Of a stretch of DNA of 64,000 nucleotides, positions 955 to 51,029 are shown in pieces. The stretch lies in sequence record MK524178.1. One strand, given 5' to 3'. This DNA is from Escherichia phage PHB12. A program made the translations under genes and the position numbers. Each line of letters begins with the position of its first letter. Positions within the stretch are counted from its first letter, which is position 1. Below the pieces are notes generated by a model. That model had not been told where the DNA came from. It searched no databases and saw only the letters and a list, made by a program, of their open reading frames with translations.

Positions 955-2768
955 TGGTGTTTAACCCTATGCATGATTTCTTTATTTTTACCGAGATTAA
1001 ATCCGCGTTCGTTCGGATTTCCAAGATAACCGCATGTTCTTCTTATGGTGTTCATCTTTTTAGGATCAGTTTCTCCACAAACTGAACAAACAAATCCGTT
1101 TTCAGTAGGAGTCATTTCATGGGTACTTCCGCATGTAAAACATTTATCTACTGGCATGTTAACACCAAAATAATCTAAATGTTGCGCAGCATAATCCCAT
1201 ACGGCCTCAAGTCCTTTTAAGTTATTTTTCATATCAGGAAGTTCAACATAAGAAATGTGTCCGCCGGTCGCAATGAAATGATATGGTGCTTCGCGAGAAA
1301 TCTTTTCAAACGGAGTAATATTTTCTTCTACCGAAACGTGGAAACTATTAGTGTACCAGCCTTTATCAGTAACATCTTTTACACTTCCATATTTCTCAGT
1401 ATCAAGTTTACAGAAGCGATAGCACAGGTTTTCAGCGGGTGTAGAATACAAGCTAAAAGCAAAACCAGTTCTTTCGGTCCACTGCTTAAGACGAGCATTC
1501 ATTTTAGTTAAAATTTCTTGTCCAATATCACGACCGACAAGAATATTCAATTCGTGAATACCAATGTATCCTAAGGACACCGAACTTCTACCGTTTTTAA
1601 ATAACTCAATTATATCATCGTCAGGTTTCAGACGAACCCCAAATGCACCTTCTTGGTAAAGAATAGGAGCAACTGTTGCTTTAACTCCTTTTAATGAACT
1701 AATTCTACACATCAATGCTTCAAAACACAGATCCATTCGTTCATTAAATAGCTCAACAAATTTCTGTTCATTGAATTGTGTTCCAATATAAGAATCTAAC
1801 GCAATACGAGGAAGATTCAGTGTTACAACACCAAGATTATTACGTCCATCAAGAATTTCATTACCAGTCGAATCTTTCCATACACTCAAGAAACTACGAC
1901 AACCCATTGGAGAAACAGGAATAGATGAACCAGTGATAGCTTTATTGTTCTTAACTGAAATAATATCAGGATACATTCTTTTGCTTGCACACTCTAGAGC
2001 AAGCTGCTTAATATCATAGTTCGGGTCGTCTTTATAAAGATTGACACCCTCTTCAACGAACATAACAAGTTTAGGGAAAATAGGAGTTATTCCATCACGA
2101 CCAAGGCCTTTAATGCGGTTTTTAAGAATTGCCTTCTGAATCATTCGTTCAGTCCAATCGGTTCCCGTACCAAATGTAATTGTTACAAAAGGCGTTTGTC
2201 CGTTTGAACTAAAGAGAGTATTTACTTCATATTCATAAGCTTGGAATGCATCGTATACGTCTTTTTCTGTTTTAGATTGGGCATAATTCAACGCATCAGC
2301 GATTTGCCATTTTTCTGCATCCTCAATATGTTTTGCATAGGTGCGTTTAACATAAGGAGAAAGTACTTTATCTACATTCGCAAAAGTCGTTCCGCCATAT
2401 TGATGGGAAGCGACCTGTGCAGTAATTTGTGCCATAATTGCAGTAGCAACACCGATCGATTTAGGCGTTTCAATTTGAGCATTACCTAGCTTAAATCCGT
2501 TCTCAAGCATTCCTTTTAAATCTACTAAACAGCAATTAGTAAACGGAAGAGCAGGAGAATAATCAATATCATGGAAATGGATAATTCCGCTTTCATGTGC
2601 TTTCATAATAAAAGACGGGACCATATTTTTGGCAATGTGCTTAGACACAATACCAGCCATAAGGTCCCGTTGAGTTGGAAAAACACGAGAATCTTTATTA
2701 GCATTCTCGTTCAAAAGATCTTTATTAGTTTTATGAATTAATCCTTCAATTTCTTTTTCAATTTTCAT
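951..2768 (-). CDS. nrdD: anaerobic ribonucleoside-triphosphate reductase (class III)
   Basis: 605 aa; C-terminal glycyl-radical motif RRTCGYLG; uninterrupted reading frame. Confidence 0.92.
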   Translation of the reverse strand: MKIEKEIEGLIHKTNKDLLNENANKDSRVFPTQRDLMAGIVSKHIAKNMVPSFIMKAHESGIIHFHDIDYSPALPFTNCCLVDLKGMLENGFKLGNAQIETPKSIGVATAIMAQITAQVASHQYGGTTFANVDKVLSPYVKRTYAKHIEDAEKWQIADALNYAQSKTEKDVYDAFQAYEYEVNTLFSSNGQTPFVTITFGTGTDWTERMIQKAILKNRIKGLGRDGITPIFPKLVMFVEEGVNLYKDDPNYDIKQLALECASKRMYPDIISVKNNKAITGSSIPVSPMGCRSFLSVWKDSTGNEILDGRNNLGVVTLNLPRIALDSYIGTQFNEQKFVELFNERMDLCFEALMCRISSLKGVKATVAPILYQEGAFGVRLKPDDDIIELFKNGRSSVSLGYIGIHELNILVGRDIGQEILTKMNARLKQWTERTGFAFSLYSTPAENLCYRFCKLDTEKYGSVKDVTDKGWYTNSFHVSVEENITPFEKISREAPYHFIATGGHISYVELPDMKNNLKGLEAVWDYAAQHLDYFGVNMPVDKCFTCGSTHEMTPTENGFVCSVCGETDPKKMNTIRRTCGYLGNPNERGFNLGKNKEIMHRVKHQ

Positions 2769-3238
2769 TTTAAACTCTTTCTAAGCTGCTTTTTGAATGA
2801 AGCTATTAATTGTGTTTTGGTATCAGATTCATTATATTCAAATCCTCTTTGAAGCATCTCAGCCATCATTTCCTCTTTACCTAGTCTTGAGAACTCTTTA
2901 GTTTTGTCTGGAACAAAATTAGGATGGATATTATTATCAGAATAATCTTGTTTCAAATAAGCAAGAAGAGCTTCAAGCCATTCTAAGTAGTCAACGTTTT
3001 GTCCTTTCAAACCGGAACGGTTGAACTTATGCTTCATTTGGCCTTCTGCTGCGTTGCACAGATTACAGAGTAACCCACGAACTCTACCTGCTTTTGGCCC
3101 GTTTAATTCGTGGTCGTGGTCAAGATGGTTACCTTGAACATCAGGGTCTAATTCACGGTGGCAAATAGGACACTTACCATTCTGTGCATCATAAAATTTT
3201 TGTTTTTCTTCTTTATATTTTGCGCCTGATAATAACAT
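2765..3238 (-). CDS. 49: endonuclease VII (Holliday junction resolvase)
   Basis: 157 aa, near-identical to T4 gp49 as recalled (CPICHRELDPDVQGNHLDHDHELNGPKAG...). Confidence 0.93.
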   Translation of the reverse strand: MLLSGAKYKEEKQKFYDAQNGKCPICHRELDPDVQGNHLDHDHELNGPKAGRVRGLLCNLCNAAEGQMKHKFNRSGLKGQNVDYLEWLEALLAYLKQDYSDNNIHPNFVPDKTKEFSRLGKEEMMAEMLQRGFEYNESDTKTQLIASFKKQLRKSLK

Positions 3239-4172: not shown

Positions 4173-4578
4173 TATTTTTCCTTTCATCAATTAAATATGC
4201 AACGCCAAATACAATACATGTAATAAAACCTGTGATACAGATAGAAACCAACAACACTGTACCAAAGAACCAAATCAAGTTATCTTTAGTAGTTTGTTTG
4301 ATATCCATCTCACGAATTTCTATAGCTATCGTATCACCTTTATTCAGAAGCGTATAAAACGATGGCGATACACGCCTGTCAAAAACTCGACCTTGTTCAT
4401 CTTTATAAACTGCAATAAATTCCAATTTAGAATATTTTCCTGTAGATTGTCCTGAAATTAATTCCACTACCTCTACAGGAATTACTTTAGTTTCCATGTA
4501 AGTATTCTGGCTGTTCCAAATGAATGGAATGATGGCAAAAACTAAAGCTGCAATAAAACAACGAAGGCTATATCTCAT
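4165..4578 (-). CDS. membrane protein with N- and C-terminal TM segments, 137 aa
   Basis: ORF track; hydrophobic segments at both ends flanking a soluble middle. Confidence 0.55.
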   Translation of the reverse strand: MRYSLRCFIAALVFAIIPFIWNSQNTYMETKVIPVEVVELISGQSTGKYSKLEFIAVYKDEQGRVFDRRVSPSFYTLLNKGDTIAIEIREMDIKQTTKDNLIWFFGTVLLVSICITGFITCIVFGVAYLIDERKNNV

Positions 4579-4883
4579 TATAATGTTCTCTCAAATTTGT
4601 GGAAGCATTTACGGCATTTCAATTTCAAGTTATCAGTGGTCCAGTTAACCAGTTGGACTTGGATAGTTCCACATTCCGGGCATGGATGTTTTGCTGCCGA
4701 TTTGGCAGCATTTTCACGTCGTTCAACCATTTTCATTATTTCGTTCCATGCCGGAGGAACGAACTCTTCTTCACCGTGGATTTTATCTCGCTGAACAAAT
4801 TCAATCTTTGAACTATCGTCAATAAACTTAACCAAGCCATGATTAGTGCTCATATCAATATCCTCTAAAAGACGTAGTTTCAT
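4578..4883 (-). CDS. small protein with C-terminal zinc-ribbon, 101 aa
   Basis: CPECG...CRKC cysteine pairs in the C-terminal 35 residues. Confidence 0.55.
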   Translation of the reverse strand: MKLRLLEDIDMSTNHGLVKFIDDSSKIEFVQRDKIHGEEEFVPPAWNEIMKMVERRENAAKSAAKHPCPECGTIQVQLVNWTTDNLKLKCRKCFHKFERTL

Positions 4884-5833
4884 TATAAAACCTCAATAGC
4901 ATTTCGTAAACCATCAGCTTTTGCATTCAGAGCTTTTAATGATTTAGTTTGTTCTGCAATCTGGGCTTCGACTTCTTTCAGACGAGATTTGAGATATTCG
5001 CGTTCTTCTCTTAAATTATCAACTTTTTCTACTTTAGTCTCTTTAATAGGCTTAGGTTTATACTCGTTAGGGTTCTTCAACTTAATTTGAATGCGAGAAC
5101 TGTATAACATTGAACCATTATCTTCAGTTTCATCATACATTTCTACCACGTCCATAGTCTGTAACATCATACGAAGTTTATAAGACAGCGAACGAACGGT
5201 TTTGTTGCGCTTATTAATTTCTTCGGCTTTCATGGTACCGAGATTACGTGAGTAGTAATAAGGAACCTGGATATCAATTGATAACGATGCAGCGCCATTA
5301 CCGGTTGGTTTGAATACTGCAGTAACCCAATCTTTAACATGAACTTTATTTGTACGACCATCACCGCCTGTGAATAATTTACGTGAATGTTTAAAAAGCA
5401 TATTCACTTGGTTATTGAATTCACAAGCAAATTTATCAGCAAATTTAGTTTCAGGAATGGTAGATAACCAATCAGCCAAATGAGTCTTTTTAACATCGTT
5501 AATAATAGTAAATTCAACCAAATCAGTTTTAGATGTCACAGATTTAATAAAGCTCGGCTTCATAAAGTTTTTAATGTTATCTCGAGCTACAGTAGAAGAT
5601 AATAAACGAGAACGTTTGAACCATTGAAGCAGTGTCCCTAATGAATGAGAATACGCATTCTGAGTATCTTTACAGATATGATTTTCTTGGCCTGTGTATG
5701 TACCAAAATCGCGAAGAATGCCACTTACTACAACTCGGTGTGGAACATCAAATCCTAATAAACCAGAAGCACGTTGGGCATGAACGTTAGCGATAAGACC
5801 TGCAAAATAATCAACATAATGTGAACGTGTCAT
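4883..5833 (-). CDS. hypothetical protein with C-terminal coiled coil, 316 aa
   Basis: ORF track; heptad-like tail (LREEREYLKSRLKEVEAQIAEQTKSLKALNAKADGLRNAIEVL). Confidence 0.6.
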   Translation of the reverse strand: MTRSHYVDYFAGLIANVHAQRASGLLGFDVPHRVVVSGILRDFGTYTGQENHICKDTQNAYSHSLGTLLQWFKRSRLLSSTVARDNIKNFMKPSFIKSVTSKTDLVEFTIINDVKKTHLADWLSTIPETKFADKFACEFNNQVNMLFKHSRKLFTGGDGRTNKVHVKDWVTAVFKPTGNGAASLSIDIQVPYYYSRNLGTMKAEEINKRNKTVRSLSYKLRMMLQTMDVVEMYDETEDNGSMLYSSRIQIKLKNPNEYKPKPIKETKVEKVDNLREEREYLKSRLKEVEAQIAEQTKSLKALNAKADGLRNAIEVL

Positions 5834-5895
5834 AATATTTTCCTCTCGTTAAGATAGAAAGATTATACTCCAACCATCCTTGGTTGTAAACTGAT

Positions 5896-6825
5896 TTATG
5901 ATTTTAATGCATTCATTGCATTAAAAAGTTTAGAGTATTGCAACTGGAGTTTGGTAACTACTTGTTGAGCATCACGAAGCTTAGCTTGTGCTTTGTCAAG
6001 TTCAACAGACAGTTGGTCCACAGTGGCTTTGATTTGATTATAATAGTAATCTTCGGCAGGAAGAAGACCGTTAGAGATTTCCAGTTTAGTCGACGGTGTG
6101 CCGTTAAACATAACAGGTTGTGCTGAAGCTGCATTAATCTTACCGATAGTCGGGGCGACAATAATTGACGCTTCGAACGTTGCATTTTCCTTTTTAAGAT
6201 TTTGATAGTATTCAGAGTCTTTGTGCCACCATGGCGCAGGAACCTTTTTACCAATAGATACACGAGCCTGGATAGCGATATGGCCCTTATTCTTGATAAC
6301 GTCGATAATATTAAGCTCACGAGAATAAATTGCTTTAATCTGGTGGATATTATCACCTAACACTTCCAACGCTTGGTGGAATACACGAGCAACGTTATCA
6401 TTCTTAGGTTTATACGTAAGAGTGAACTCGTTCTCACTGATAACCATGATTTCTAACTTATCGTAAGTATATTTCAAATGTTTCATGTTAATTGCTTGAG
6501 GACGAATACGAGAAGCAATGGCCATCAGATTGTTAAGGTTATTCCGGAACTGCTTAGCGAAATATTGTCCTTCACCGCCAATACAAAAATTACGAAGTTT
6601 CTGTTTGGCTAATAAACGGCTGAACTCACCATTTTTAATGAACTCTTTAACGGGTGTGTTAGTAACGCATTCAAATTGAGTAAACTTACGAGAAGTAATC
6701 CCATAATATGAACAGATTTCCTCAATCTCTTCAGGAGTCTTTACAGGCATACGGATAGGATTAGGACCTGGGGTATATGCGTTAGAGGTAAATTCTTTGA
6801 TAAGTTCTCTACGTGTAATAGCCAT
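5896..6825 (-). CDS. hypothetical protein with C-terminal coiled coil, 309 aa
   Basis: ORF track; own upstream promoter cassette; possibly a distant paralog of the 316-aa neighbour (shared YYY patch). Confidence 0.6.
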   Translation of the reverse strand: MAITRRELIKEFTSNAYTPGPNPIRMPVKTPEEIEEICSYYGITSRKFTQFECVTNTPVKEFIKNGEFSRLLAKQKLRNFCIGGEGQYFAKQFRNNLNNLMAIASRIRPQAINMKHLKYTYDKLEIMVISENEFTLTYKPKNDNVARVFHQALEVLGDNIHQIKAIYSRELNIIDVIKNKGHIAIQARVSIGKKVPAPWWHKDSEYYQNLKKENATFEASIIVAPTIGKINAASAQPVMFNGTPSTKLEISNGLLPAEDYYYNQIKATVDQLSVELDKAQAKLRDAQQVVTKLQLQYSKLFNAMNALKS

Positions 6826-6880
6826 TTTATATTCCTCATGTTGAAAAATTTATTATACTCCAACCATCCTTGGTTGTACA

Positions 6881-7876
6881 TCATTCCTTAAGAAGTTTTA
6901 CTACTTGAATAAGATTAGCTCGTTCTGTTTTATTTTTACTGTTTAAGCCTGCTAATCGTGAGATTTCATCATCAGTCTGTTGAATAGTTACATTAAGTTC
7001 GCTAATCAAAGCTTCAAAGTATTTGATTTGCTCAGCATGTTTTGATTCAAATTTCTGAACCGGAATAACGTCCTGGTTTAGTTCATCAATAAGGTCTTTA
7101 AGAGCATCTTCTTGATTGATATCATATTCAACTTCTTTTATTTCTTCAACGAGCTCGTCTTTATATCTAACGTCTTTTAGTCCTGGTGATGGTCCTGAAA
7201 TCTCTTCTTTAAGAGTACAAACATATCCAATACGGTATCCAATGCCGTCTCGCTTGATATCAACTTCGTCAATAAATCCACAATGTTTAAGACCAGAGCC
7301 GATTAGGTCAAAATATCCTTGACGTCGTCCTTCAAACGTTACACGAACTACTAAGACAGTTTTACCTGCAACCTTTTGAAGCTCACATTTATAAAAGTCT
7401 GTTGAACCTGAATAACGTGGATGAGTTTTAAAGTTCATCTGACGATCTAGGCCCATTTGTAAGCGTGCTGATACGGCCATAAAACGTGTTTGGTTCTCGT
7501 TAAGATGAGCAACAATCCATTTCAAAGGCATTTTACACTGTTCACGACCGAACAAATCAGTACGTCCTAGATTACGCAGGATGTTGTTAGAGTTAATCAT
7601 CGACAGAACGTTAAGTTTATTCAGCGCGCTGAAGATTCCATCGGCCATTGATTTTCCGTAACCTTTACACGCTTTAATAAGCGCTCGCGGTAGATTAGTA
7701 TAAATTTCAGACGGCATATGAAAATCAAATTTACTAGTCAGTAATTGATGAACTTGGATAGCAATTTGCTCATAATTAAGTGCTCTGCGATCATTATGGT
7801 CTTTAAACCACACTTTAATCTGTGAAGCACATAAACCGTTAATTTCATGTTTTACCGCATCAGATGTAATGCTCAT
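6881..7876 (-). CDS. hypothetical protein with C-terminal coiled coil, 331 aa
   Basis: ORF track; acidic linker followed by a coiled-coil tail. Confidence 0.6.
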   Translation of the reverse strand: MSITSDAVKHEINGLCASQIKVWFKDHNDRRALNYEQIAIQVHQLLTSKFDFHMPSEIYTNLPRALIKACKGYGKSMADGIFSALNKLNVLSMINSNNILRNLGRTDLFGREQCKMPLKWIVAHLNENQTRFMAVSARLQMGLDRQMNFKTHPRYSGSTDFYKCELQKVAGKTVLVVRVTFEGRRQGYFDLIGSGLKHCGFIDEVDIKRDGIGYRIGYVCTLKEEISGPSPGLKDVRYKDELVEEIKEVEYDINQEDALKDLIDELNQDVIPVQKFESKHAEQIKYFEALISELNVTIQQTDDEISRLAGLNSKNKTERANLIQVVKLLKE

Positions 7877-7938
7877 AACTATTTCCTCAGATTGAATTGG
7901 AACTCAAAACCATTATAACCCGTCCTTGGGTAAAGCGT

Positions 7939-8466
7939 TTATGCGTGAACCGTCTTTAAACGTTCTTCAAATTTCCGAAGAGTACTAATACGTTCTGCTT
8001 TCTGTTTTGTATAGTTTGCAATACGTTCTGAAGTGAGAGCGTATCGTTCGTTTACTGTTTCTTTCATGAAGTCAGGGATTTCACGAGAAGCTTTAATTTC
8101 ATCAAACTTATCGAGTACTGCCTGGTCTTCAGCGATTAAATTTTCGTACATCTCGATATCTTTCTTGATAAACTCGATATCTTCCTGGGTTACTTTGGAT
8201 AAACGAGATGCTTTATCCTTTTTGTACTGCTCGTTAGTTTCACGAGACCAGAATAATGTACGTTTTTTGTTAGTGTTTTTGTAGACTTCCACAATTCCAA
8301 CTGAATCGATGATAGCAATCCAATTCCAGTGAGATTTGAAAATCTGACCTCCGTCCACGGTAATCTCGTTACCATAAGCAACGTCATTAAAGAACTTGCT
8401 TTGTGCTTCAGATTTAAATTTACCGTCGTTATAATTTACCAGGTTGAAAATATCTTTAGCGTTCAT
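7939..8466 (-). CDS. hypothetical protein, 175 aa
   Basis: ORF track; charged helical C-terminal half. Confidence 0.55.
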   Translation of the reverse strand: MNAKDIFNLVNYNDGKFKSEAQSKFFNDVAYGNEITVDGGQIFKSHWNWIAIIDSVGIVEVYKNTNKKRTLFWSRETNEQYKKDKASRLSKVTQEDIEFIKKDIEMYENLIAEDQAVLDKFDEIKASREIPDFMKETVNERYALTSERIANYTKQKAERISTLRKFEERLKTVHA

Positions 8467-8524: not shown

Positions 8525-8866
8525 CTAAAAGAAACTTTTTTCGGTATTTTTTCCACTGAACCAAGCGGATTGGGTAGTATTTTTCCGTTGGTGTTCGATA
8601 CGAATGCGATATTCATTCCTGATGGCGCAGAGTTCACCTCGGAAGTCGCCTGCCAACTTTACCTGCTTTCGGTCTAGATTTATTAAGGCCTGAGTCTTCG
8701 CGGCCAAGAGCAGTCTCTTGTAGTCTCCTTCTTCACAATCGGTTTTATAAACTCTATTGGTATATCCGTTGATAACTTCTTTATCATAGTCCTCGACGGA
8801 TTGTTTCATAGCTTTGGAAAAAGTCTGACCTGCGTTATAAAGATTGTAAATAAATTGTTCAAACAT
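8525..8866 (-). CDS. hypothetical protein, 113 aa
   Basis: ORF track. Confidence 0.5.
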   Translation of the reverse strand: MFEQFIYNLYNAGQTFSKAMKQSVEDYDKEVINGYTNRVYKTDCEEGDYKRLLLAAKTQALINLDRKQVKLAGDFRGELCAIRNEYRIRIEHQRKNTTQSAWFSGKNTEKSFF

Positions 8867-8876
8867 AATTTCACCT

Positions 8877-9878
8877 TTATTTCAGAAGTGTAACTTCAGA
8901 GATTTCCTCCCAACCGTCTTTATCAGTTGAAATAAAATCTGCTACATAAAGAGCCGTACGTAATGATACATTGCGAAGACGAGATACGTTAGCCTTCATC
9001 CAGGACAATGCTTTATACGTTTCTGCATCTGTCAGACCACGTTTCTGCATCATGTCAGTAGATAATATTACATCTTCAACTCGAACCATAATCTCTTCAT
9101 TAGAGTGTACTCCAAGGTCGAGATACACTGAACGAGATACTAAAGCTTGAAGGTGCGGGGCAAGCTTCGAACCGCGTTCTAACTCTTTATCGATATCAAC
9201 GTTTGTAATGAAAACGATAGTACCTTCAAACACAAATTCTTTATCAATACCCTTATCATCGAGATAAGACGACGCAGTGCTCCAGCAAACTTTGCGTTTA
9301 TCTCCAGTATCTAATGCTGCTTTAAGAAGGTTCAAGATGTCCATATCCGAGAATACGTCAACGTCGTCGATTAAGAGAACGCTGTCTGCATCACGGTTGA
9401 GCCAAAGTTGTTCGTAAAGGCCTATACCAGAGATTTTACCATTAATGCTTTTGTATTTGATGAAACCGTTATCATTAGCATTATTAAGCGCTTTATCCAG
9501 AGAATACGTCTTACCAATACCTGCTGCACCTGAAATAATGAGTGAACGAATTTTGCCATCGATAATGCCATTCGTCATCATGTTCATTACTTTAAAGCGT
9601 TTGTTGATACGAGTTTTCATATCTTCACTGCTTTCAACAACTGCAACTGGTGATGTCTCAGCTCCTTCCATTACGATGTCTGATTTGAAGACCCATACTC
9701 CACGTTCAGAACCATCAATCATAACGAAAATTTTACCATCACCTAAGTGGGAACATTCAGGATTAAGCTTTGCCGGGAACCATGTCTTTGTGGCAACATA
9801 AGAACCAGAGATTTCGTTATTACGATAGATACCTTTTTTGATTTGAACGTTGAACATTTTATTCTCCAATTTACTCAT
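8877..9878 (-). CDS. P-loop ATPase (AAA+-like core) with a 100-aa N-terminal extension, 333 aa
   Basis: Walker A ISGAAGIGKTYS, Walker B VLLIDDVD, sensor-1-like VFITNVD. Confidence 0.7.
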   Translation of the reverse strand: MSKLENKMFNVQIKKGIYRNNEISGSYVATKTWFPAKLNPECSHLGDGKIFVMIDGSERGVWVFKSDIVMEGAETSPVAVVESSEDMKTRINKRFKVMNMMTNGIIDGKIRSLIISGAAGIGKTYSLDKALNNANDNGFIKYKSINGKISGIGLYEQLWLNRDADSVLLIDDVDVFSDMDILNLLKAALDTGDKRKVCWSTASSYLDDKGIDKEFVFEGTIVFITNVDIDKELERGSKLAPHLQALVSRSVYLDLGVHSNEEIMVRVEDVILSTDMMQKRGLTDAETYKALSWMKANVSRLRNVSLRTALYVADFISTDKDGWEEISEVTLLK

Positions 9879-9926
9879 TTCGTTTCGATAGGTCTATAAT
9901 AACATGTTTAAAGCAAAAGTAAACAA

Positions 9927-10145
9927 TTATTTGCGACGAGATTTTTTGGTAAGAGGTTGAAAGAACACTGCTTTACCTGCAGGAGTCAAAGTAACTCGTA
10001 ATGCATTACCGATTCCCAAGGATGCTTTAACAAGACCTTTAGATTTCAGTTCACCGAATGCTTGACGTTGGTCTGCATCACGAGTGTTAACCATAAGACC
10101 TTTATCACCAGCTTCACGAATCATTTCTAACATTTTGGTTTTCAT
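9927..10145 (-). CDS. small winged-helix-like protein (about 72 aa from the internal ATG)
   Basis: Internal ATG preceded by SD GAGGAG; helix-turn-helix-like MLEMIREAGDKGLMVNTRDADQRQAFGELKSKGLV. Confidence 0.5.
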   Translation of the reverse strand: MKTKMLEMIREAGDKGLMVNTRDADQRQAFGELKSKGLVKASLGIGNALRVTLTPAGKAVFFQPLTKKSRRK

Positions 10146-10230
10146 TTTGTTCTCCTCTTGTTTTGATAGGTCTATAATAACATATCCTAAAAGCATGTAC
10201 ACCACTTTTTAAAAATATTTTGACCCCCTA

Positions 10231-10248
10231 AAGGGCCCGAAGGCCCTT
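10231..10248 (-). terminator. GC-rich hairpin just downstream of the nucleotidyltransferase gene
   Basis: AAGGGCC-cgaa-GGCCCTT perfect 7-bp stem with tetraloop, followed by a U-containing tract on the minus transcript. Confidence 0.5.
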
Positions 10249-10249
10249 A

Positions 10250-11239
10250 TCATTTATAGTACGAATTGTGGTTTTCTAAGTAGACTTGCTCAAGGAAATC
10301 ATCCCAGAAACTCATATCTACTTTTTGTTGCATACCGTTCTTGGCAGCTTGTTCTGATGCTTGTTCAACTTTGTCAACGATATCTTCTAGGAATTCTTGT
10401 ACAGTTTTAAACGTATGTTTACCAAGCTTAACATCTAGAATAAATGGAGCATCCCGAAGTGGGTAAACCAGGTCGCCGGTTTTATAAATTTCTAATAGTT
10501 GAAGTCCACCACGACATGCATGACTCAATGCTTTCCAGTCAATACCTTCGTTAGCTTCTGCCTTACGAGCACGTTCGCCATAGTTCTCTTCCAGTTTAAC
10601 CAGGATGGCATTGAACTCTTTATTGGTTAATGTGTCTTGGAATTTACGGTCTAACAGATTATAGAACGTTTGCTTACCTGTTTTCTCGTTTTCGGTTTCA
10701 ACCCACGAAGCAAATTCACCTACGGGCAGAACATTCTTCATATGTGATAAACGAATTACTGCACCATTATCAAAGTATTGTCCCCATTCGTTAGAACGTT
10801 TAAGGGCTTGTCGAAGAACAGCCAGTCGAGAACCCTTGACACCATATTTAGAAGCTTGCTTACGGACATACCCTAAATAAGATTTCATGTTAGTAGTATA
10901 GAAACGAGACCTGTTGTCTTGAATATACTTCCACACGTCAGGCAAATCAGATTTAACTACTAGACTTTGCGGAGTGTGAAGCATATCTAATGCGACAGTT
11001 TCACCATCCATAGCTAGTTTAAAGAAATATTTGAGACTATACAACTCGTGGTCCACGTCGTCTTTTGTGTTCTTAGAAGATGTGTTATTCGTGTTCTTGC
11101 TCATGTGTTCTTTAACGTTACCAGTCAAGATATCACGAGCATGAGGGACATAAATTTCTTTAAAATCGACGTCAGATTCAGGAGTAGACGTTCCATAAAG
11201 GTGACTACCAAAGTAGCCTTTCATAATTGTTTTCATCAT
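10250..11239 (-). CDS. Pol-beta-superfamily nucleotidyltransferase, 329 aa
   Basis: N-terminal GS-x9-SDVDF motif (YFGSHLYGTSTPESDVDF) typical of minimal nucleotidyltransferases. Confidence 0.65.
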   Translation of the reverse strand: MMKTIMKGYFGSHLYGTSTPESDVDFKEIYVPHARDILTGNVKEHMSKNTNNTSSKNTKDDVDHELYSLKYFFKLAMDGETVALDMLHTPQSLVVKSDLPDVWKYIQDNRSRFYTTNMKSYLGYVRKQASKYGVKGSRLAVLRQALKRSNEWGQYFDNGAVIRLSHMKNVLPVGEFASWVETENEKTGKQTFYNLLDRKFQDTLTNKEFNAILVKLEENYGERARKAEANEGIDWKALSHACRGGLQLLEIYKTGDLVYPLRDAPFILDVKLGKHTFKTVQEFLEDIVDKVEQASEQAAKNGMQQKVDMSFWDDFLEQVYLENHNSYYK

Positions 11240-11709
11240 TTAGCCTTATATTCAAGAGTAGGACAGACTTTTTCTTTACGAGCTTTAAGGTATTCACCTA
11301 TTAATGATTTCTTACGTTCAATAGGCTCAAGTCCATTTTTAATTCGTTCTTGGTTTTTCGCAATGAGCTCGATTTCTTTATAATATTTTCTGTCGTTATA
11401 TTTGTCTAACAACCAAGACGGACCAATTATCAACCCGGCAGCAATAAAAGCCATGACTGCTACTATTAAAATGCCTACGCCAATTGAGGCTGGAACTAAT
11501 GTCCATAGACTGCTAAAAACAAAGAATTTAGTTAAAATTTCCTGGCCAATGATTACGACTGCTGCTAAAATCGCAAATCCGATAATTGAAACAGACAATA
11601 CCGGGATTAACGTTTTCCAAAAATAAGCACACAACGTTTTCGGGCGATTCCATGTACTATTGAACGCGGCATAAATTTTAAAGTGCCAAGAGTTTTCATT
11701 GATAATCAT
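11236..11709 (-). CDS. multi-pass membrane protein, 157 aa
   Basis: Three hydrophobic segments, then a charged C-terminus. Confidence 0.55.
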   Translation of the reverse strand: MIINENSWHFKIYAAFNSTWNRPKTLCAYFWKTLIPVLSVSIIGFAILAAVVIIGQEILTKFFVFSSLWTLVPASIGVGILIVAVMAFIAAGLIIGPSWLLDKYNDRKYYKEIELIAKNQERIKNGLEPIERKKSLIGEYLKARKEKVCPTLEYKAK

Positions 11710-11718
11710 AATAATTCC

Positions 11719-12249
11719 TTATTTCAAAGTCGGGATAATAGAATCAAGATAAGCTTTAAGAGCAACTGCTTCATCTTTGTCTAATGTAATGATATGTTGA
11801 CGAAGGTCATCAATTTGACGAATAACTACGACATCACCATCTTCATAAGAAGGATTAACGCCTAAGACCGTTGTAGAGTCAGAGTTGGCCGGATTTGTAA
11901 TAAAAGCATTACGGCATTTAGCCCATTGAAGTTTGGCCTTTTTGGCTGTTTCAGATTCCACGAATTCTTTCACCTTAGTGACGAATGTTTTCCAATTATT
12001 AATAGAAAAACATTCGTCTTCAGTTTCGATATTAACCCCACTATAAAGTCCATGATAAAAACGAACTTGAAGGTCTTCGTCAATGTTAATTACAGATGCA
12101 TGGCCCGGTGGATTGAGTTTCAAAATCTTGTCCAGTTCCATAGGAAGAATAGTAACCGCATCATCTTCTTGTGTCAGAACGTAAGCACAACCACGTTTTT
12201 CTATACATAAATCACCAAACAACTCAGTCGTTTCAATTACCGTTTTCAT
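11719..12249 (-). CDS. hypothetical protein (about 176 aa from the ATG at 12249)
   Basis: ORF track frame; ORF-track start is TTG, first ATG gives MKTVIETTELF.... Confidence 0.55.
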   Translation of the reverse strand: MKTVIETTELFGDLCIEKRGCAYVLTQEDDAVTILPMELDKILKLNPPGHASVINIDEDLQVRFYHGLYSGVNIETEDECFSINNWKTFVTKVKEFVESETAKKAKLQWAKCRNAFITNPANSDSTTVLGVNPSYEDGDVVVIRQIDDLRQHIITLDKDEAVALKAYLDSIIPTLK

Positions 12250-12250
12250 A

Positions 12251-12432
12251 TTATTCACCAATTAAAGTTTCAACAAAATTCACTAAATCATTCTGACAAG
12301 CATCAACCTGATTTTCATAAAAATCTCCGTTATCATTTACCGCGTGATAAGCTACATCATTCAAATCTGAATCGGCTTCACGTAAGTCACGGATAAGGTC
12401 CATCAATTTATTAGCTTGTTCACGGGTCATTT
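12251..12432 (-). CDS. small ORF, about 59 aa, below the ORF-track cutoff
   Basis: Manual translation MTREQANKLMDLIRDLREADSDLNDVAYHAVNDNGDFYENQVDACQNDLVNFVETLIGE; stop abuts the downstream start. Confidence 0.4.
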
Positions 12433-12594
12433 TACCATACTCGTTTCAATAAGATTCACTATGCCGTTTACCATGTTATAAGTAAACATCGGATAATTGT
12501 ATTGTACTACAACATAAGCGATAAGCAAAAGTTTCATTTTGTTCTCCATTTGTTTTGGTAGGATTACTATATCATAGTCCTACCAAGACGTAAA

Positions 12595-12801
12595 CTACCG
12601 ATTGTGTTTTAAATGTTGATAAAGCTCTTCAACTTGTTTAGGGTCCAAAACAATTAAGTCATTTTCTTGGCGAAGATAAATCCATCCCTTATCCCCAGGA
12701 CCATTTTTACAAAACATCACCACCGTATCATCATCTTCAGCGCTTTCAGGTAAAAGTTCAAGTACACCGTCTTCAGATTTTCCAGTATAATCGTAAAGCA
12801 T
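12595..12801 (-). CDS. hypothetical small acidic protein (about 68 aa)
   Basis: ORF track frame; ATG at 12801 preceded by SD GAGGT. Confidence 0.5.
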   Translation of the reverse strand: MLYDYTGKSEDGVLELLPESAEDDDTVVMFCKNGPGDKGWIYLRQENDLIVLDPKQVEELYQHLKHNR

Positions 12802-12808
12802 AATGACC

Positions 12809-12988
12809 TCACATAATCTCGTTAACATACATTTGCAATTCGGTGTGGGCAGATGCCATCTTTTTCATTGCCTTATTGATATCGATATCACCGTCTTCAC
12901 ACCCGTGGGCATTTTCCCAATCGGATACAGCGTTAGCGTACTCTTCAATCAAAAACATTAACTTAGAAATTTTTTCTTTACGTGACAT
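12809..12988 (-). CDS. hypothetical small protein (about 59 aa)
   Basis: ATG at 12988 preceded by SD GAGGAG and an early-promoter cassette. Confidence 0.5.
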   Translation of the reverse strand: MSRKEKISKLMFLIEEYANAVSDWENAHGCEDGDIDINKAMKKMASAHTELQMYVNEIM

Positions 12989-13060
12989 AACGTTCTCCTC
13001 TAGTAAGTAAGGTCTACTATAACACAACCTGAGGAGAAGTAAACTGCTAAATGCAAAAAA

Positions 13061-13086
13061 AGCCCCAACCTTTCGGAAGGGGCTTT
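13061..13086 (-). terminator. hairpin terminator (copy 1 of a 28-nt direct repeat)
   Basis: AGCCCC...GGGGCT stem with U-tract on the minus transcript (and a T-tract on plus). Confidence 0.55.
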
Positions 13087-13088
13087 GA

Positions 13089-13646
13089 TTAGTTTTTGTA
13101 ATATCGTAAAGGGTTGATATGGAATGAAAGCATTGCGCGTGGAATAGGACGACTCAAAAGACTCTTAAGTTTCCAACCACAATAAACACGCAGATAAAAT
13201 GTAATACCACCAACCTTAAGATAAGGTATAGCAGCGAATAATCCCCATGCAGACTCGTTCCAAACTAAAAGATATCCATGATGTGCCGGATCAGGAGATC
13301 CAGATTTAGTTTCGGCGTTGCCTTTATAGTGCCATTCTGATGAAGCTTCGCGACCTAAAACATGATACGAAAAATTATATGCTTTGTTGCGCCATAGCCA
13401 AGCTACGCGTTGAGCATATTTACCTATAACAGGAATTTTACGTATTTTAGACCAACGTTCAACATGGCCGCGGTCACCATCGATAGGATTATCGTAAGTC
13501 ATCATCCAGTCAAAGCCATAAGGTAGTTTACCGGTTTTTTCACTATGGAATGGAACTACAAATGGTGCTAGAATAATTGCTAAAATCGCTGCGATCCAAT
13601 CTATAGGAACAAGAACAACCCAACTTATATATTTTAAAAATTTCAT
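13089..13646 (-). CDS. membrane-anchored protein at the rI.-1 position, 185 aa
   Basis: N-terminal TM segment; minus-sense TATAAATA (late promoter consensus) and SD GAGAGGA immediately upstream. Confidence 0.6.
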   Translation of the reverse strand: MKFLKYISWVVLVPIDWIAAILAIILAPFVVPFHSEKTGKLPYGFDWMMTYDNPIDGDRGHVERWSKIRKIPVIGKYAQRVAWLWRNKAYNFSYHVLGREASSEWHYKGNAETKSGSPDPAHHGYLLVWNESAWGLFAAIPYLKVGGITFYLRVYCGWKLKSLLSRPIPRAMLSFHINPLRYYKN

Positions 13647-13683
13647 ATATCCTCTCTTAGTTTACAAGGATATTTATACAAAA

Positions 13684-13706
13684 AGCCCCAACCTTTCGGA
13701 AGGGGC
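13684..13706 (-). terminator. hairpin terminator downstream of rI (copy 2 of the 28-nt repeat)
   Basis: Same CAAAAAGCCCCAACCTTTCGGAAGGGGC sequence as at 13055-13082. Confidence 0.55.
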
Positions 13707-13713
13707 AGGTAAA

Positions 13714-14016
13714 TTAGATAGATGTAGGCTCTAATTTTATTTTCATGAACTCGGCAAATTGTCTGGCAGTTTTTATGCCTTGTTCATGACATTCAAATGC
13801 ATCATCACAGGGGCTATTTTTGTAATGCTTTACCATATACTTATAGAATTTTTCAGAATTCTCGACATTTTGAATTTCAAACAAAGTATATACGTTTTTA
13901 ATCCCTGATTCCATAAAGTTATCAAAATATGGGTCGGTATACGCAGTGCCAACGATAGGAGTTGTTGCTGCAAAAAACCCCAGCATCGCCACAATGGCTA
14001 TCGCTCTTAAGGCCAT
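13714..14016 (-). CDS. rI: lysis inhibition regulator (antiholin)
   Basis: 100 aa; signal-anchor N-terminus and FMESGI...YKN.PC motifs resemble T4 RI as recalled. Confidence 0.85.
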   Translation of the reverse strand: MALRAIAIVAMLGFFAATTPIVGTAYTDPYFDNFMESGIKNVYTLFEIQNVENSEKFYKYMVKHYKNSPCDDAFECHEQGIKTARQFAEFMKIKLEPTSI

Positions 14017-15228: not shown

Positions 15229-15446
15229 GTCACCTTTAAGCAGTATTCTTCTACATGTTGTTTACGACCTTTCTTATCAATAAAGGTATATTCAACGAAT
15301 GTTCCAATGTAGTCTTTATCTACATCATGTGGACTATTAATTGGGCATTTAGTACGACAAATGCGTTCCCATTGACGAATAATTACTGCCTTATTCTTTG
15401 GGTCGTATGGATGTGGATAATGTATATTCATAATAATGGTTCCCAA
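15219..15446 (-). CDS. small protein, 75 aa
   Basis: ORF track. Confidence 0.5.
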   Translation of the reverse strand: MGTIIMNIHYPHPYDPKNKAVIIRQWERICRTKCPINSPHDVDKDYIGTFVEYTFIDKKGRKQHVEEYCLKVTWL

Positions 15447-15925
15447 TCAACAATCACAATTTCTAGTTTAGTGGAATACGTATCTAAAATCTCTTCGATG
15501 ACAACCCAGTTTCCACCACCGATACCTGCACCAATTCTTGGCATATAAATTACAGGCTTTGTTATCTTATTCTTTCCGAATTCATTTAATTCTATTATAC
15601 AATTCATTAAAGCAAAGTACTCAAAATTAGGTCCCGGCTCAAACTGTGTATAAAGATTAAAGCAATAAGCTTTATGGGTCTTAAAATATTTTTCATAAAC
15701 CGAATAAGTCCCGAGTTTAGACTCGTCTCCGAATTCGGTTTGAAGTTTATCGGCTTCTAAAATTTTTGGATAAGCCTTTGCTAATTGTCCTGCCACACCA
15801 GCGCCCATTGTATGAAAACAATTACACCCATGAGCAATATTATTACCTTTAGAAAACAGGGCGACAATATCGCCCTTGATATAGTTTTTAATCACTTGCT
15901 GCAAGTCCTCTAGTATAAGAGTCAA
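15428..15925 (-). CDS. macro-domain-like protein (possible ADP-ribose binding or hydrolase), 165 aa
   Basis: Glycine-rich loops GNNIAHGCNC...MGAGVAGQLAKA and PRIGAGIGGGNW resemble macro-domain signatures; motif-level only. Confidence 0.4.
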   Translation of the reverse strand: MTLILEDLQQVIKNYIKGDIVALFSKGNNIAHGCNCFHTMGAGVAGQLAKAYPKILEADKLQTEFGDESKLGTYSVYEKYFKTHKAYCFNLYTQFEPGPNFEYFALMNCIIELNEFGKNKITKPVIYMPRIGAGIGGGNWVVIEEILDTYSTKLEIVIVDWEPLL

Positions 15926-49586: not shown

Positions 49587-51029
49587 ATGATCGAATTAAA
49601 AAGTCTACCATATGTTGATGGCCCTCCTGATGAGGGTCAAAAACGTTTAAACTGGATTAAAAATTCAGAAGAAATAACTGGCGCTGATACGTTATACGGT
49701 TCTGAAGGAGTAATGAACCGTCCAATAACAGAAGTTCAACGAAATGTAGAAACAATTAACGATAACGTTAAGACTATCGCAGAATCTTTAGATACCGCTA
49801 ATGCTGATATTGTCACAATTAAAAGTATCTTGGATGTTTCTGGTGACGTAGATGCTTTAGCACAAATTGGACATAACACTGATGATATTGAAGTATTAAA
49901 ACACACTGTAAATTCACACGGTGTTGATATTTTAAACACTGAAGAAAAACTAGATGATACTATTGCTAATATCGGAGTAGTTAATCCAGAAACAGATTCG
50001 GTGTATCGTACGGTGCGTAACGACCTTCTTTGGATTAAAACCGAATTAGGGCAATATACTGGACAAGATATTAATGGTGTCCCAACCGAAGGTAATGAAA
50101 GCACCGGGATGAAACGACGTATTATTACTAACAGTTCAGTGTTGGTTGACCAAGGCGTTCGTTTAACCGAGTTAGAAAATAAATTTGCCGATTCTGATGT
50201 TGGGGCTCTGACAACTGAAGTTGAAAACCTCCGTCAAGAAATAGGTCCTAGACCATCGTTAACAGTACCGGTTTACACTCGTTTATCTGGTATTGATTCA
50301 TCCATTTCTATCCAAACCAGAGATATTGCGGCATTAAAAGATTTTGTTGGATATCCTAATTCAACCGCTATTAAAACTCAAGTCGAGGCCAATCGTCTTT
50401 CTATATCAGCAATAAATTCAGACATTAACTCGCCTGGTGGTATTAAACCACGTTTGACAACGTTAGAAACTACTGTAGGCTCTCCAGATTTACCGACTAC
50501 TCTTCAGGGTAAGATCAAATTAAATACCGATTCCATTTCAGGTATTAACACAGTTTTAGGTGTTGATTCTTCTAGTGGTTTACGTTTTAACGTAGCATGG
50601 CTTAATCAGGTGGTTGGCGTTGATTCAAATGGTGGACAACCTGAACCGGCTGGTTCACTTTTATATAGGACTCGTATTCTTGAAACGGGTGTTACTGACC
50701 TAGGCAATAACATTCAAAACGTTCAAACCGAATTGGGAACTAATTCGTCCGGTATTAAAGGACAAGTGACTAGTTTAAATAAACTTATAAGCGGCACTAA
50801 CCCAAACGGTCAAACCATAGAAGAACGTGGTATATTGCCAACAGTTAAAAACCATGACACGACAATTATGGCTTTAACTACGCGTGTTACCACTTTAGAA
50901 ACAGACCTTGCTGCAGCAGAAGCAGAAATTCAGGCCCTTAAAGAGGCTGGATATATCGAAGATGCTCCTTCAGACGGTAAATTCTATGTTCGTAAAGATG
51001 GTGCTTGGGTTGAACTTCCTACAGCTTAA
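49587..51029 (+). CDS. wac: fibritin (whisker antigen control)
   Basis: 480 aa coiled-coil-rich with C-terminal foldon-like GYIEDAPSDGKFYVRKDGAWVELP. Confidence 0.9.
   Translation: MIELKSLPYVDGPPDEGQKRLNWIKNSEEITGADTLYGSEGVMNRPITEVQRNVETINDNVKTIAESLDTANADIVTIKSILDVSGDVDALAQIGHNTDDIEVLKHTVNSHGVDILNTEEKLDDTIANIGVVNPETDSVYRTVRNDLLWIKTELGQYTGQDINGVPTEGNESTGMKRRIITNSSVLVDQGVRLTELENKFADSDVGALTTEVENLRQEIGPRPSLTVPVYTRLSGIDSSISIQTRDIAALKDFVGYPNSTAIKTQVEANRLSISAINSDINSPGGIKPRLTTLETTVGSPDLPTTLQGKIKLNTDSISGINTVLGVDSSSGLRFNVAWLNQVVGVDSNGGQPEPAGSLLYRTRILETGVTDLGNNIQNVQTELGTNSSGIKGQVTSLNKLISGTNPNGQTIEERGILPTVKNHDTTIMALTTRVTTLETDLAAAEAEIQALKEAGYIEDAPSDGKFYVRKDGAWVELPTA

Follow-up and report, generated by a model that had tools for sequence, protein, structure and literature searches.

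Three tandem nrdC.3-nrdC.6-type genes of an RB69-like phage as probable diverged paralogs with coiled-coil tails and a possible anti-defence role

Identity and position of the three genes

In a 64,000-nucleotide stretch of Escherichia phage PHB12 (MK524178.1; this whole stretch is called the window herein), three consecutive minus-strand open reading frames (ORFs), which we refer to as wA, wB and wC, encode proteins of 316, 309 and 331 amino acids, respectively, each with a GAGG Shine-Dalgarno sequence 6–8 nt ahead of its ATG (Table 1). A preliminary description of this DNA, made from the letters alone, had placed three consecutive ORFs of 309–331 residues at 4883–7876, and both coordinates and sizes proved exact. 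The source of the window is an RB69-like T4-type phage, with an nrdC region that shares 97–98% identity with Mosigvirus genomes, among them those of Escherichia phages SF, phi25-307 and S143_2. When the three proteins were compared with the nrdC.x genes of T4, a comparison that the preliminary description had proposed, each found a counterpart: wA is the ortholog of nrdC.3, wB a distant counterpart of nrdC.5 and wC the counterpart of nrdC.6. The three genes are thus ordinary members of known, functionally obscure T4 families, which databases list separately. What is new here is a link, suggested by profile comparison, that would unite nrdC.3, nrdC.4, nrdC.5 and nrdC.6 in one superfamily with a shared architecture and C-terminal signature. 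We found this family only in T4-like (Tevenvirinae) phages.

The evidence for family membership differs in strength among the three. wA matched T4 NrdC.3 at 56% identity over its full length (316 residues; E = 5e-120) and PHROG_1435 over profile positions 1–333 of 334 (E = 9e-104). The precomputed family PF26897 is assigned to its homologues, and wA lies directly upstream of nrdC.2, as nrdC.3 does in T4. wB matched the Pfam family DUF7235 (PF23882) over positions 1–307 of 307 (E = 6e-112; 374.5 bits against a gathering cutoff of 30). T4 NrdC.5 (Y05A) is also a DUF7235 protein, and wB resembles it in gene-order position, in its layout of head, linker and coiled coil, and in its C-terminal signature (QRSKLNNALNALN in T4 NrdC.5 versus QYSKLFNAMNALKS in wB), but the two are only 24% identical (E = 7e-10). 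When homologues were clustered, wB fell in a separate cluster, present in approximately 130 Mosigvirus records, which hhalign linked to the T4 nrdC.5 cluster at 96%. wC was 29% identical to T4 NrdC.6 (E = 2e-18) and matched PHROG_2257 (E = 3e-127); PF26899 is assigned to its homologues, and its family is very small: an exhaustive HMMER search of 1.84 billion proteins yielded only 6 representatives. The T4 counterparts of wA and wC, NrdC.3 (with NrdC.4 in PF26897 and PHROG 1435) and NrdC.6 (PF26899, PHROG 2257), are hypothetical early proteins. Profile searches of PDB sequences returned no relatives, and PADLOC and NCBIfam scans gave no significant match.

Table 1. Coordinates of the three genes, their tails, head motifs and upstream elements, and of neighbouring genes in the window
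Feature	Coordinates	Strand	Description
wA	4883..5833	-	T4 NrdC.3 ortholog; branch S1 (nrdC.3 + nrdC.4)
wB	5896..6825	-	DUF7235 family member, corresponding distantly to T4 nrdC.5; branch S2
wC	6881..7876	-	T4 nrdC.6 counterpart; branch S3
wA coiled-coil tail, residues 265-316	4886..5041	-	heptad z = 4.5; AlphaFold2 helix; ends ...KADGLRNAIEVL
wB coiled-coil tail, residues 257-309	5899..6057	-	heptad z = 3.9; AlphaFold2 helix; ends ...QYSKLFNAMNALKS
wC coiled-coil tail, residues 281-331	6884..7036	-	heptad z = 3.1 (residues 281-318); ends ...ERANLIQVVKLLKE
wA head motif, residues 69-159	5357..5629	-	LQWFKRSRLLSSTVARDNIKNF ... KFADKFACEFNNQVNMLFKHSRKLFTGGD
wB head motif, residues 59-112	6490..6651	-	VKEFIKNGEFSRLLAKQKLRNF...YFAKQFRNNLNNLMAIASRIRPQ
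wC head motif, residues 82-144	7445..7633	-	FSALNKLNVLSMINSNNILRNL...WIVAHLNENQTRFMAVSARLQMGLD
PeSL-like cassette upstream of wA	5862..5890	-	-35 TTTACA, 17-nt spacer, -10 TATAAT; hairpin CAACCA-AGGA-TGGTTG (5871-5886) within spacer, perfect 6-bp stem
PeSL-like cassette upstream of wB	6852..6880	-	-35 TGTACA, hairpin as for wA (6861-6876), -10 TATAAT
Promoter-like element upstream of wC	7912..7938	-	CGCTTTA, hairpin ACCC-AAGGAC-GGGT (7918-7931), TATAAT
Endonuclease VII	2765-3238	-	
nrdC glutaredoxin homologue, 93 aa	3909-4190	-	placed and ordered like T4 nrdC and the S143_2 glutaredoxin coding sequence
nrdC.7-like, 137 aa	4165-4578	-	predicted membrane protein
nrdC.2 homologue	4578-4883	-	start coincides with wA end at 4883
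nrdC.8	7939-8466	-	
nrdC.9-like	8525-8866	-	
nrdC.10-like	8877-9878	-	AAA ATPase
nrdC.11 homologue	10250-11239		nucleotidyltransferase

On the coding strand the local gene order is nrdC.10-like, nrdC.9-like, nrdC.8, wC, wB, wA, nrdC.2, nrdC.7-like, nrdC and endonuclease VII, and wA, wB and wC occupy the slot that in T4 holds four genes, nrdC.3, nrdC.4, nrdC.5 and nrdC.6; the window phage is without an nrdC.4 copy. The preliminary description had put the ORFs where mobD lies in T4, which was imprecise. T4 mobD lies beyond nrdC.11 on the T4 map; the T4 stretch that was compared ends inside nrdC.11. In the window, a scan of ORFs of 90 amino acids or more from the nrdC.11 homologue to rI/tk (9900–14016) detected no endonuclease domain.

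Two other identities were considered and rejected. Many phage records label orthologs of these genes 'thioredoxin', and the T4 region carries mob genes, which would fit thioredoxin-like redox proteins or remnants of the homing-endonuclease genes of the nrdC–mobD region. However, none of the three ORFs had a thioredoxin, glutaredoxin, HNH or GIY-YIG Pfam match (E ≤ 0.1 for endonuclease), as the preliminary description had said of the two endonuclease motifs, and none contains a CxxC motif, while the real nrdC glutaredoxin homologue is the separate 93-aa ORF listed in Table 1. We therefore regard either identity as extremely improbable. The 'thioredoxin' label is widespread on orthologs and on their neighbours (e.g. 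OR352942, OM982647, MW630116) and seems to derive from their nrdC.x names, exposing a widespread misannotation of these genes.

Coiled-coil tails and profile links between the heads

The three proteins had been described as ending in about 50 residues of coiled coil, and we found tails of approximately 45–55 residues. These were scored with a crude, home-made heptad measure, in which 28-residue windows in their best register are compared with 200 shuffles of each protein, and all three exceeded their shuffles (Table 1). In the heptad registers, the a and d positions are hydrophobic or small at 12 of 14 sites in wA and at 14 of 14 in wB. AlphaFold2 modelled a single long C-terminal helix for each of these two proteins, spanning residues 275–315 of wA (predicted local distance difference test, pLDDT, ~65–80) and 258–308 of wB (pLDDT ~47–76), and hhalign pairs the tails of wC and wB column for column. 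To place these scores in context, the C-terminal heptad score was calculated for the 59 non-overlapping ORFs of at least 120 amino acids in the window. Only four reached a score of at least 20: wA, wB, wC and fibritin (wac, 49587–51029), which is known to form a trimeric coiled coil and served as the positive control. By our own arithmetic, the chance that three adjacent ORFs would all fall in the top four is ~0.007. The heptad periodicity of the tails is real and non-random.

Relationships among the three proteins were invisible to pairwise comparison. BLASTP gave no match among wA, wB and wC, Smith-Waterman scores for their heads and tails were no higher than those of shuffles, and the tails compared in pairs showed no excess over heptad-preserving shuffles (p = 0.2–0.5). 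As pairwise methods were uninformative, we compared cluster profiles built from 37 T4-like loci, which were anchored on the conserved nrdC.10 and from which regional ORFs of at least 200 amino acids were clustered. The nrdC.3 and nrdC.4 clusters were linked at 98% and the wC cluster was linked to cluster C8 at 76%, and, together with the link between the wB and T4 nrdC.5 clusters, these form part of a further web of links running through intermediate clusters. Linked clusters were merged into three branches: S1, comprising nrdC.3 and nrdC.4; S2, nrdC.5-like; and S3, nrdC.6-like. In hhalign, S1 matched S2 at 97.0% (E = 1e-10), S2 matched S3 at 97.7% (E = 2e-12, 221 columns) and S1 matched S3 at 87.5%, while reversed-profile controls of the merged branches all remained below 1%. 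Single clusters also matched a branch other than their own (C0–S2, 94%; C2–S2, 83%; C4–S2, 96.5%; C8–S2, 97.5%), and plain HMMER crossed between branches, with E-values of 2e-7 for nrdC.4 and 9e-15 for cluster C8 against the S2 hidden Markov model. Profile comparison ruled out three neighbour families as members of the superfamily (≤2.2%): nrdC.9, nrdC.2 and nrdC.8, the last of which has a helical C-terminus as well. Across full and part-profile controls, reversed profiles and nrdC.8 stayed at or below 6%.

These matches extend into the heads. The preliminary description had considered the globular heads to be unique, which was not supported: a two-helix motif, approximately L-S-x3-A-x3-L-[KR]-N-F ... 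F-x3-[FL]-x2-N-x3-[LM]-x3-[AS]-R-[KR]-L-x2-G-D, is common to them, and head-only profiles matched at 95% between S1 and S2 and at 92% between S2 and S3. Tail-only profiles matched at 95% for S2–S3 and 80% for S1–S2. The motif of wA, which carries a wA-specific insertion of ~40 residues between the two conserved helices, was aligned to that of wB in the S1–S2 comparison (97%, E = 1e-10), and the motif of wC was aligned to the same wB residues in the comparison of C2 with S2 (82.7%).

Could the three instead be unrelated ORFans of similar size that converged on a low-complexity coiled coil, with the profile links arising as artefacts of composition? That heads and tails, compared in pairs, show nothing in common but the heptad pattern would suit such a reading, as would the fact that Pfam and PHROGs hold three separate families. 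It is contradicted by the head-only matches, by the best S1–S2 and S1–S3 alignments, which are wholly confined to the heads, by the low values of the reversed profiles and nrdC.8, and by the intermediate clusters that bridge the families, and we judge it very improbable. The similarity among the branches thus goes beyond low-complexity coiled coil, and the proposal of diverged paralogs is borne out, though at the profile level only, by hhalign between branches. Together, these data suggest that wA, wB and wC are diverged paralogs with homologous heads.

Two further features had been put forward as common to the proteins. The first, a conserved tail, stood in part: the tails agree in kind and in their terminal motif, but not in overall sequence. 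At the very C-terminus, wA, wB and wC all carry the signature [QE]RxKLxxA[LIMV]xxL[KN]. Of the 13 clusters that make up the three branches, 11 have it (C7 and C17 do not), as does the unassigned cluster C13; in some clusters it is degenerate or trailed by 1–3 extra residues. The least conserved stretch within each family is the P/K-rich linker directly before the tail. The second, a YYY-containing patch, does occur in wA (residues 192–194) and wB (260–262), but the two sites lie in unaligned columns, in the central domain of wA versus the start of the wB coiled coil. Neither is conserved within its family, where YHY variants occur and T4-type nrdC.3 has HEIY. We therefore dismissed YYY as a shared motif; with non-homologous, non-conserved positions, it is a coincidence.

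Copy number, variants and promoter-hairpin cassettes

The number of superfamily members differs among T4-like phages. T4-likes of the Enterobacter and Citrobacter types, which are related to IME523, CF1 and myPSH1140, have one, in most cases directly upstream of nrdC.2, whereas JS98 and Mosigvirus have three and T4-type phages four, including the clear paralogs nrdC.3 and nrdC.4. This series of 1, 3 and 4 copies points to tandem expansion, and the order nrdC.6-type, nrdC.5-type, nrdC.4/.3-type is kept across genomes. Divergence at the locus is high: the identities of wA, wB and wC to their T4 counterparts (56%, 24% and 29%) compare with 82% for the flanking nrdC.8 and 77% for nrdC.10. In otherwise T4-type genomes, nrdC.3 alleles are ~55%, 76% or >90% identical to wA (e.g. 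loci L022/L023 versus L024/L025). These allele classes are independent of genome background, which is consistent with cassette exchange between genera.

Several members have altered ends. In T4 itself (L001, NC_000866), nrdC.6 (275 aa) has a frameshift after ...KQIEEL, within the coiled coil (~11997–12140, minus strand), so that the T4 reference protein is without the tail that wC keeps; what follows of the coiled coil (ISIQQYDDEIFRLSGLSSKAKSEREKLIKIVDLLKS) can still be read intact in another frame and is in frame in the 295-aa versions of close T4 relatives (L022–L025). RB69 NrdC.5 (P0051, 300 aa) has last ~60 residues unlike those of all other members of the wB family and no coiled-coil tail, likely the result of a frameshift or sequencing error. 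One 299-aa protein (P0033), found on 3 contigs, the longest of 167 kb, is a natural fusion of residues 146–272 of T4-type NrdC.5 with residues 141–316 of an NrdC.3-type protein, which implies deletion of the nrdC.5 tail, the whole of nrdC.4 and the nrdC.3 N-terminus. Separately, just upstream of the superfamily gene in single-copy genomes (L010–L021, L028–L035, ~12.3–13.8 kb) lies a gene of cluster C3, encoding conserved proteins of 256–284 aa that end in ...THSFFKRPSSVVI; this cluster showed no profile similarity to the superfamily.

An identical 27-mer, TACAACCAAGGATGGTTGGAGTATAAT, is found upstream of both wA (5862–5888) and wB (6852–6878) on the minus strand, where none is expected by chance. 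It is part of an element in which a hairpin sits after the -35 box and before the -10 box (Table 1). The 27-mer reads as a near-consensus sigma-70 promoter, with 11 of 12 matches in a promoter scan for the element upstream of wA, and RNA folding of the hairpin element gave -6.9 kcal/mol. The hairpin stems covary by genus, CAACC/GGTTG in the window, CATCC/GGATG among phages of the JS98 group and CCACA/TGTGG in T4, while the loop AAGGA(T/C) is kept. The same design is present upstream of nrdC.4 in T4 (L001) and upstream of an nrdC.4-like gene in L005–L012.

The wA and wB elements look like PeSL (promoter-early stem-loop) cassettes, through which modules are shuffled in T4-type phages (Arbiol et al. 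2010, PMC2839356; Comeau et al. 2014, PMC4122927). As in the published definition (PMC2839356), they combine an intergenic sigma-70-like promoter with a stem-loop and are repeated among non-essential variable genes, and the order of elements is the same: stop codon, promoter (of the TTTACW-N17-TAYWAT type), stem-loop between -35 and -10, Shine-Dalgarno and ATG. They differ in their AAGGAT loop and in stems unlike those of the published RB49/phi1, PST and nt-1 types. Upstream of wC lies a different element, in which CGCTTTA, one mismatch from a MotA box, is followed by a 13-nt stretch with a hairpin and then TATAAT. This layout recurs upstream of the JS98 nrdC.6 homologue, and the element may be a middle promoter, a PmSL version of the cassette. 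Copies bounded by promoter and hairpin in this way offer a natural example of accessory-gene duplication and exchange in T4-type phages.

A possible anti-defence role

The sole functional datum for the superfamily in the literature searched concerns T4 nrdC.5. With this otherwise uncharacterised early gene, a T4 deletion mutant again plates on E. coli that bears the ECOR17 dsr1, and Dsr1, a sirtuin NADase defence, is thereby overcome (PMC9391042). According to a 2026 preprint, Dsr1 senses the phage capsid protein via a TPR domain that is common to Avs7 and other defence proteins (PMC12803255). As the genes are homologous, diverge rapidly, vary in copy number and are expressed early, we infer an anti-defence or host-range role for wA, wB and wC, and our best explanation, which we hold to be somewhat better supported than not, is that they are tandem diverged paralogs that oligomerise through their coiled coils and act in this capacity.

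Under this explanation, each copy would be a soluble protein composed of a head of ~220–260 residues, a short and hypervariable P/K-rich linker and a coiled coil of 45–55 residues. The head would have a helical N-terminus, probably an alpha/beta centre, and the conserved two-helix motif. Each gene would be expressed from its own promoter, two of them of sigma-70 early type and one of MotA-type appearance, with a hairpin inside each. The coiled coil would oligomerise the protein, and each of the heads, having diverged, would bind another of the host's immune proteins and neutralise it, as T4 NrdC.5 may do for Dsr1. Tandem duplication and rapid divergence would then broaden the set of targets in the genera that infect E. 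coli. The superfamily link to nrdC.5 leads to the hypothesis that nrdC.3, nrdC.4 and nrdC.6 are further counter-defence genes with other targets, and the common layout of head, linker and coiled coil suggests dissection by tail deletion or head swaps.

There is a functional analogy with another phage protein that acts against a Sir2-type NADase defence. DSAD1, a protein from Bacillus phages, binds the sensor part of DSR2. It inhibits the DSR2 sirtuin defence (PMC10973363, PMC11087589), and we liken it to NrdC.5 by function alone and claim no relationship between the two.

Several points weigh against our explanation. No functional data for nrdC.3, nrdC.4, nrdC.6 or the window proteins were found in the literature searched, and anti-Dsr1 activity is known for T4 NrdC.5 alone; as wB is only 24% identical to that protein, its activity and target may differ. 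The coiled-coil call combines a home-made heptad score with AlphaFold2 helices of low confidence, and the absence of an intact tail from the T4 reference nrdC.6 and from RB69 NrdC.5 implies that the tail can be dispensed with, in laboratory hosts at least. With regard to paralogy, the direct head-only link between S1 and S3 is weak (27%), so that this connection leans on transitivity via S2, and the branch profiles were merged along links of 59–99%, which makes some cross-contamination of profiles possible. A common fold of the heads is suggested by the profiles and not by models: from shallow alignments, AlphaFold2 reached a mean pLDDT of 56 for wA with its family alignment and of 37 for wB with a joint three-family alignment, and the C-terminal helix alone was usable in each. 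When the low-confidence wA model was searched against BFVD with Foldseek, it matched proteins of 318–374 aa (E ~1e-4 to 6e-3, TM 0.15–0.3), including three named phage proteins, from Serratia PS2 and CBH8 and Erwinia Cronus; with TM-scores this low, we regard the matches as no more than suggestive.

A second reading of the same paralogs, which we consider possible but less probable, is that they are true paralogs with coiled-coil tails whose job is early host takeover or regulation, for example as oligomeric adaptors acting on the nucleic-acid or nucleotide metabolism of host or phage, and that the anti-Dsr1 activity of NrdC.5 is lineage-specific or indirect. The functional data come from one member and a single complementation experiment; the neighbours are early and nucleotide-metabolism genes (nrdC, the nrdC.10 AAA ATPase and the nrdC.11 nucleotidyltransferase), and the presence of a single copy at a fixed position in many genera would suit a housekeeping-like accessory role. 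However, the divergence of the genes is extreme relative to the flanking genes, and their copy-number variation, allele swapping, truncations and fusions are typical of arms-race genes rather than conserved regulators. Nor was a nucleic-acid-binding or enzymatic domain found by Pfam, PADLOC or NCBIfam.

Taken further, the anti-defence explanation yields a more specific and more speculative model, which we think rather unlikely in its full form. In it, nrdC.3–nrdC.6 would be an anti-defence array that expands in tandem and has PeSL cassettes at its boundaries, the conserved coiled-coil tails would build homo- or hetero-oligomers, and the rapidly evolving heads would each neutralise their own immune sensor of the host, such as members of the TPR-sensor family that includes Dsr1, Avs7 and other effectors. 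If this were true, the copy number of 1, 3 or 4 would follow the set of defences that the host genus possesses.

Other genes of the region were noted in passing. The nrdC.7-like ORF, the counterpart of which in the near-identical locus L003 is ~41% identical to T4 NrdC.7, lies between nrdC and nrdC.2 in the window and between nrdC.6 and nrdC.8 in T4, a local gene relocation. Between the nrdC.11 homologue and rI (13714–14016) are a y05I-like putative transcription factor (11719–12261) and a DUF7338 protein (13089–13646). Downstream of tk, a 165-aa ORF on the minus strand (15428–15925) has a weak Macro-domain match (Pfam E = 4.6e-5) and may bear on ADP-ribosylation-based conflicts.

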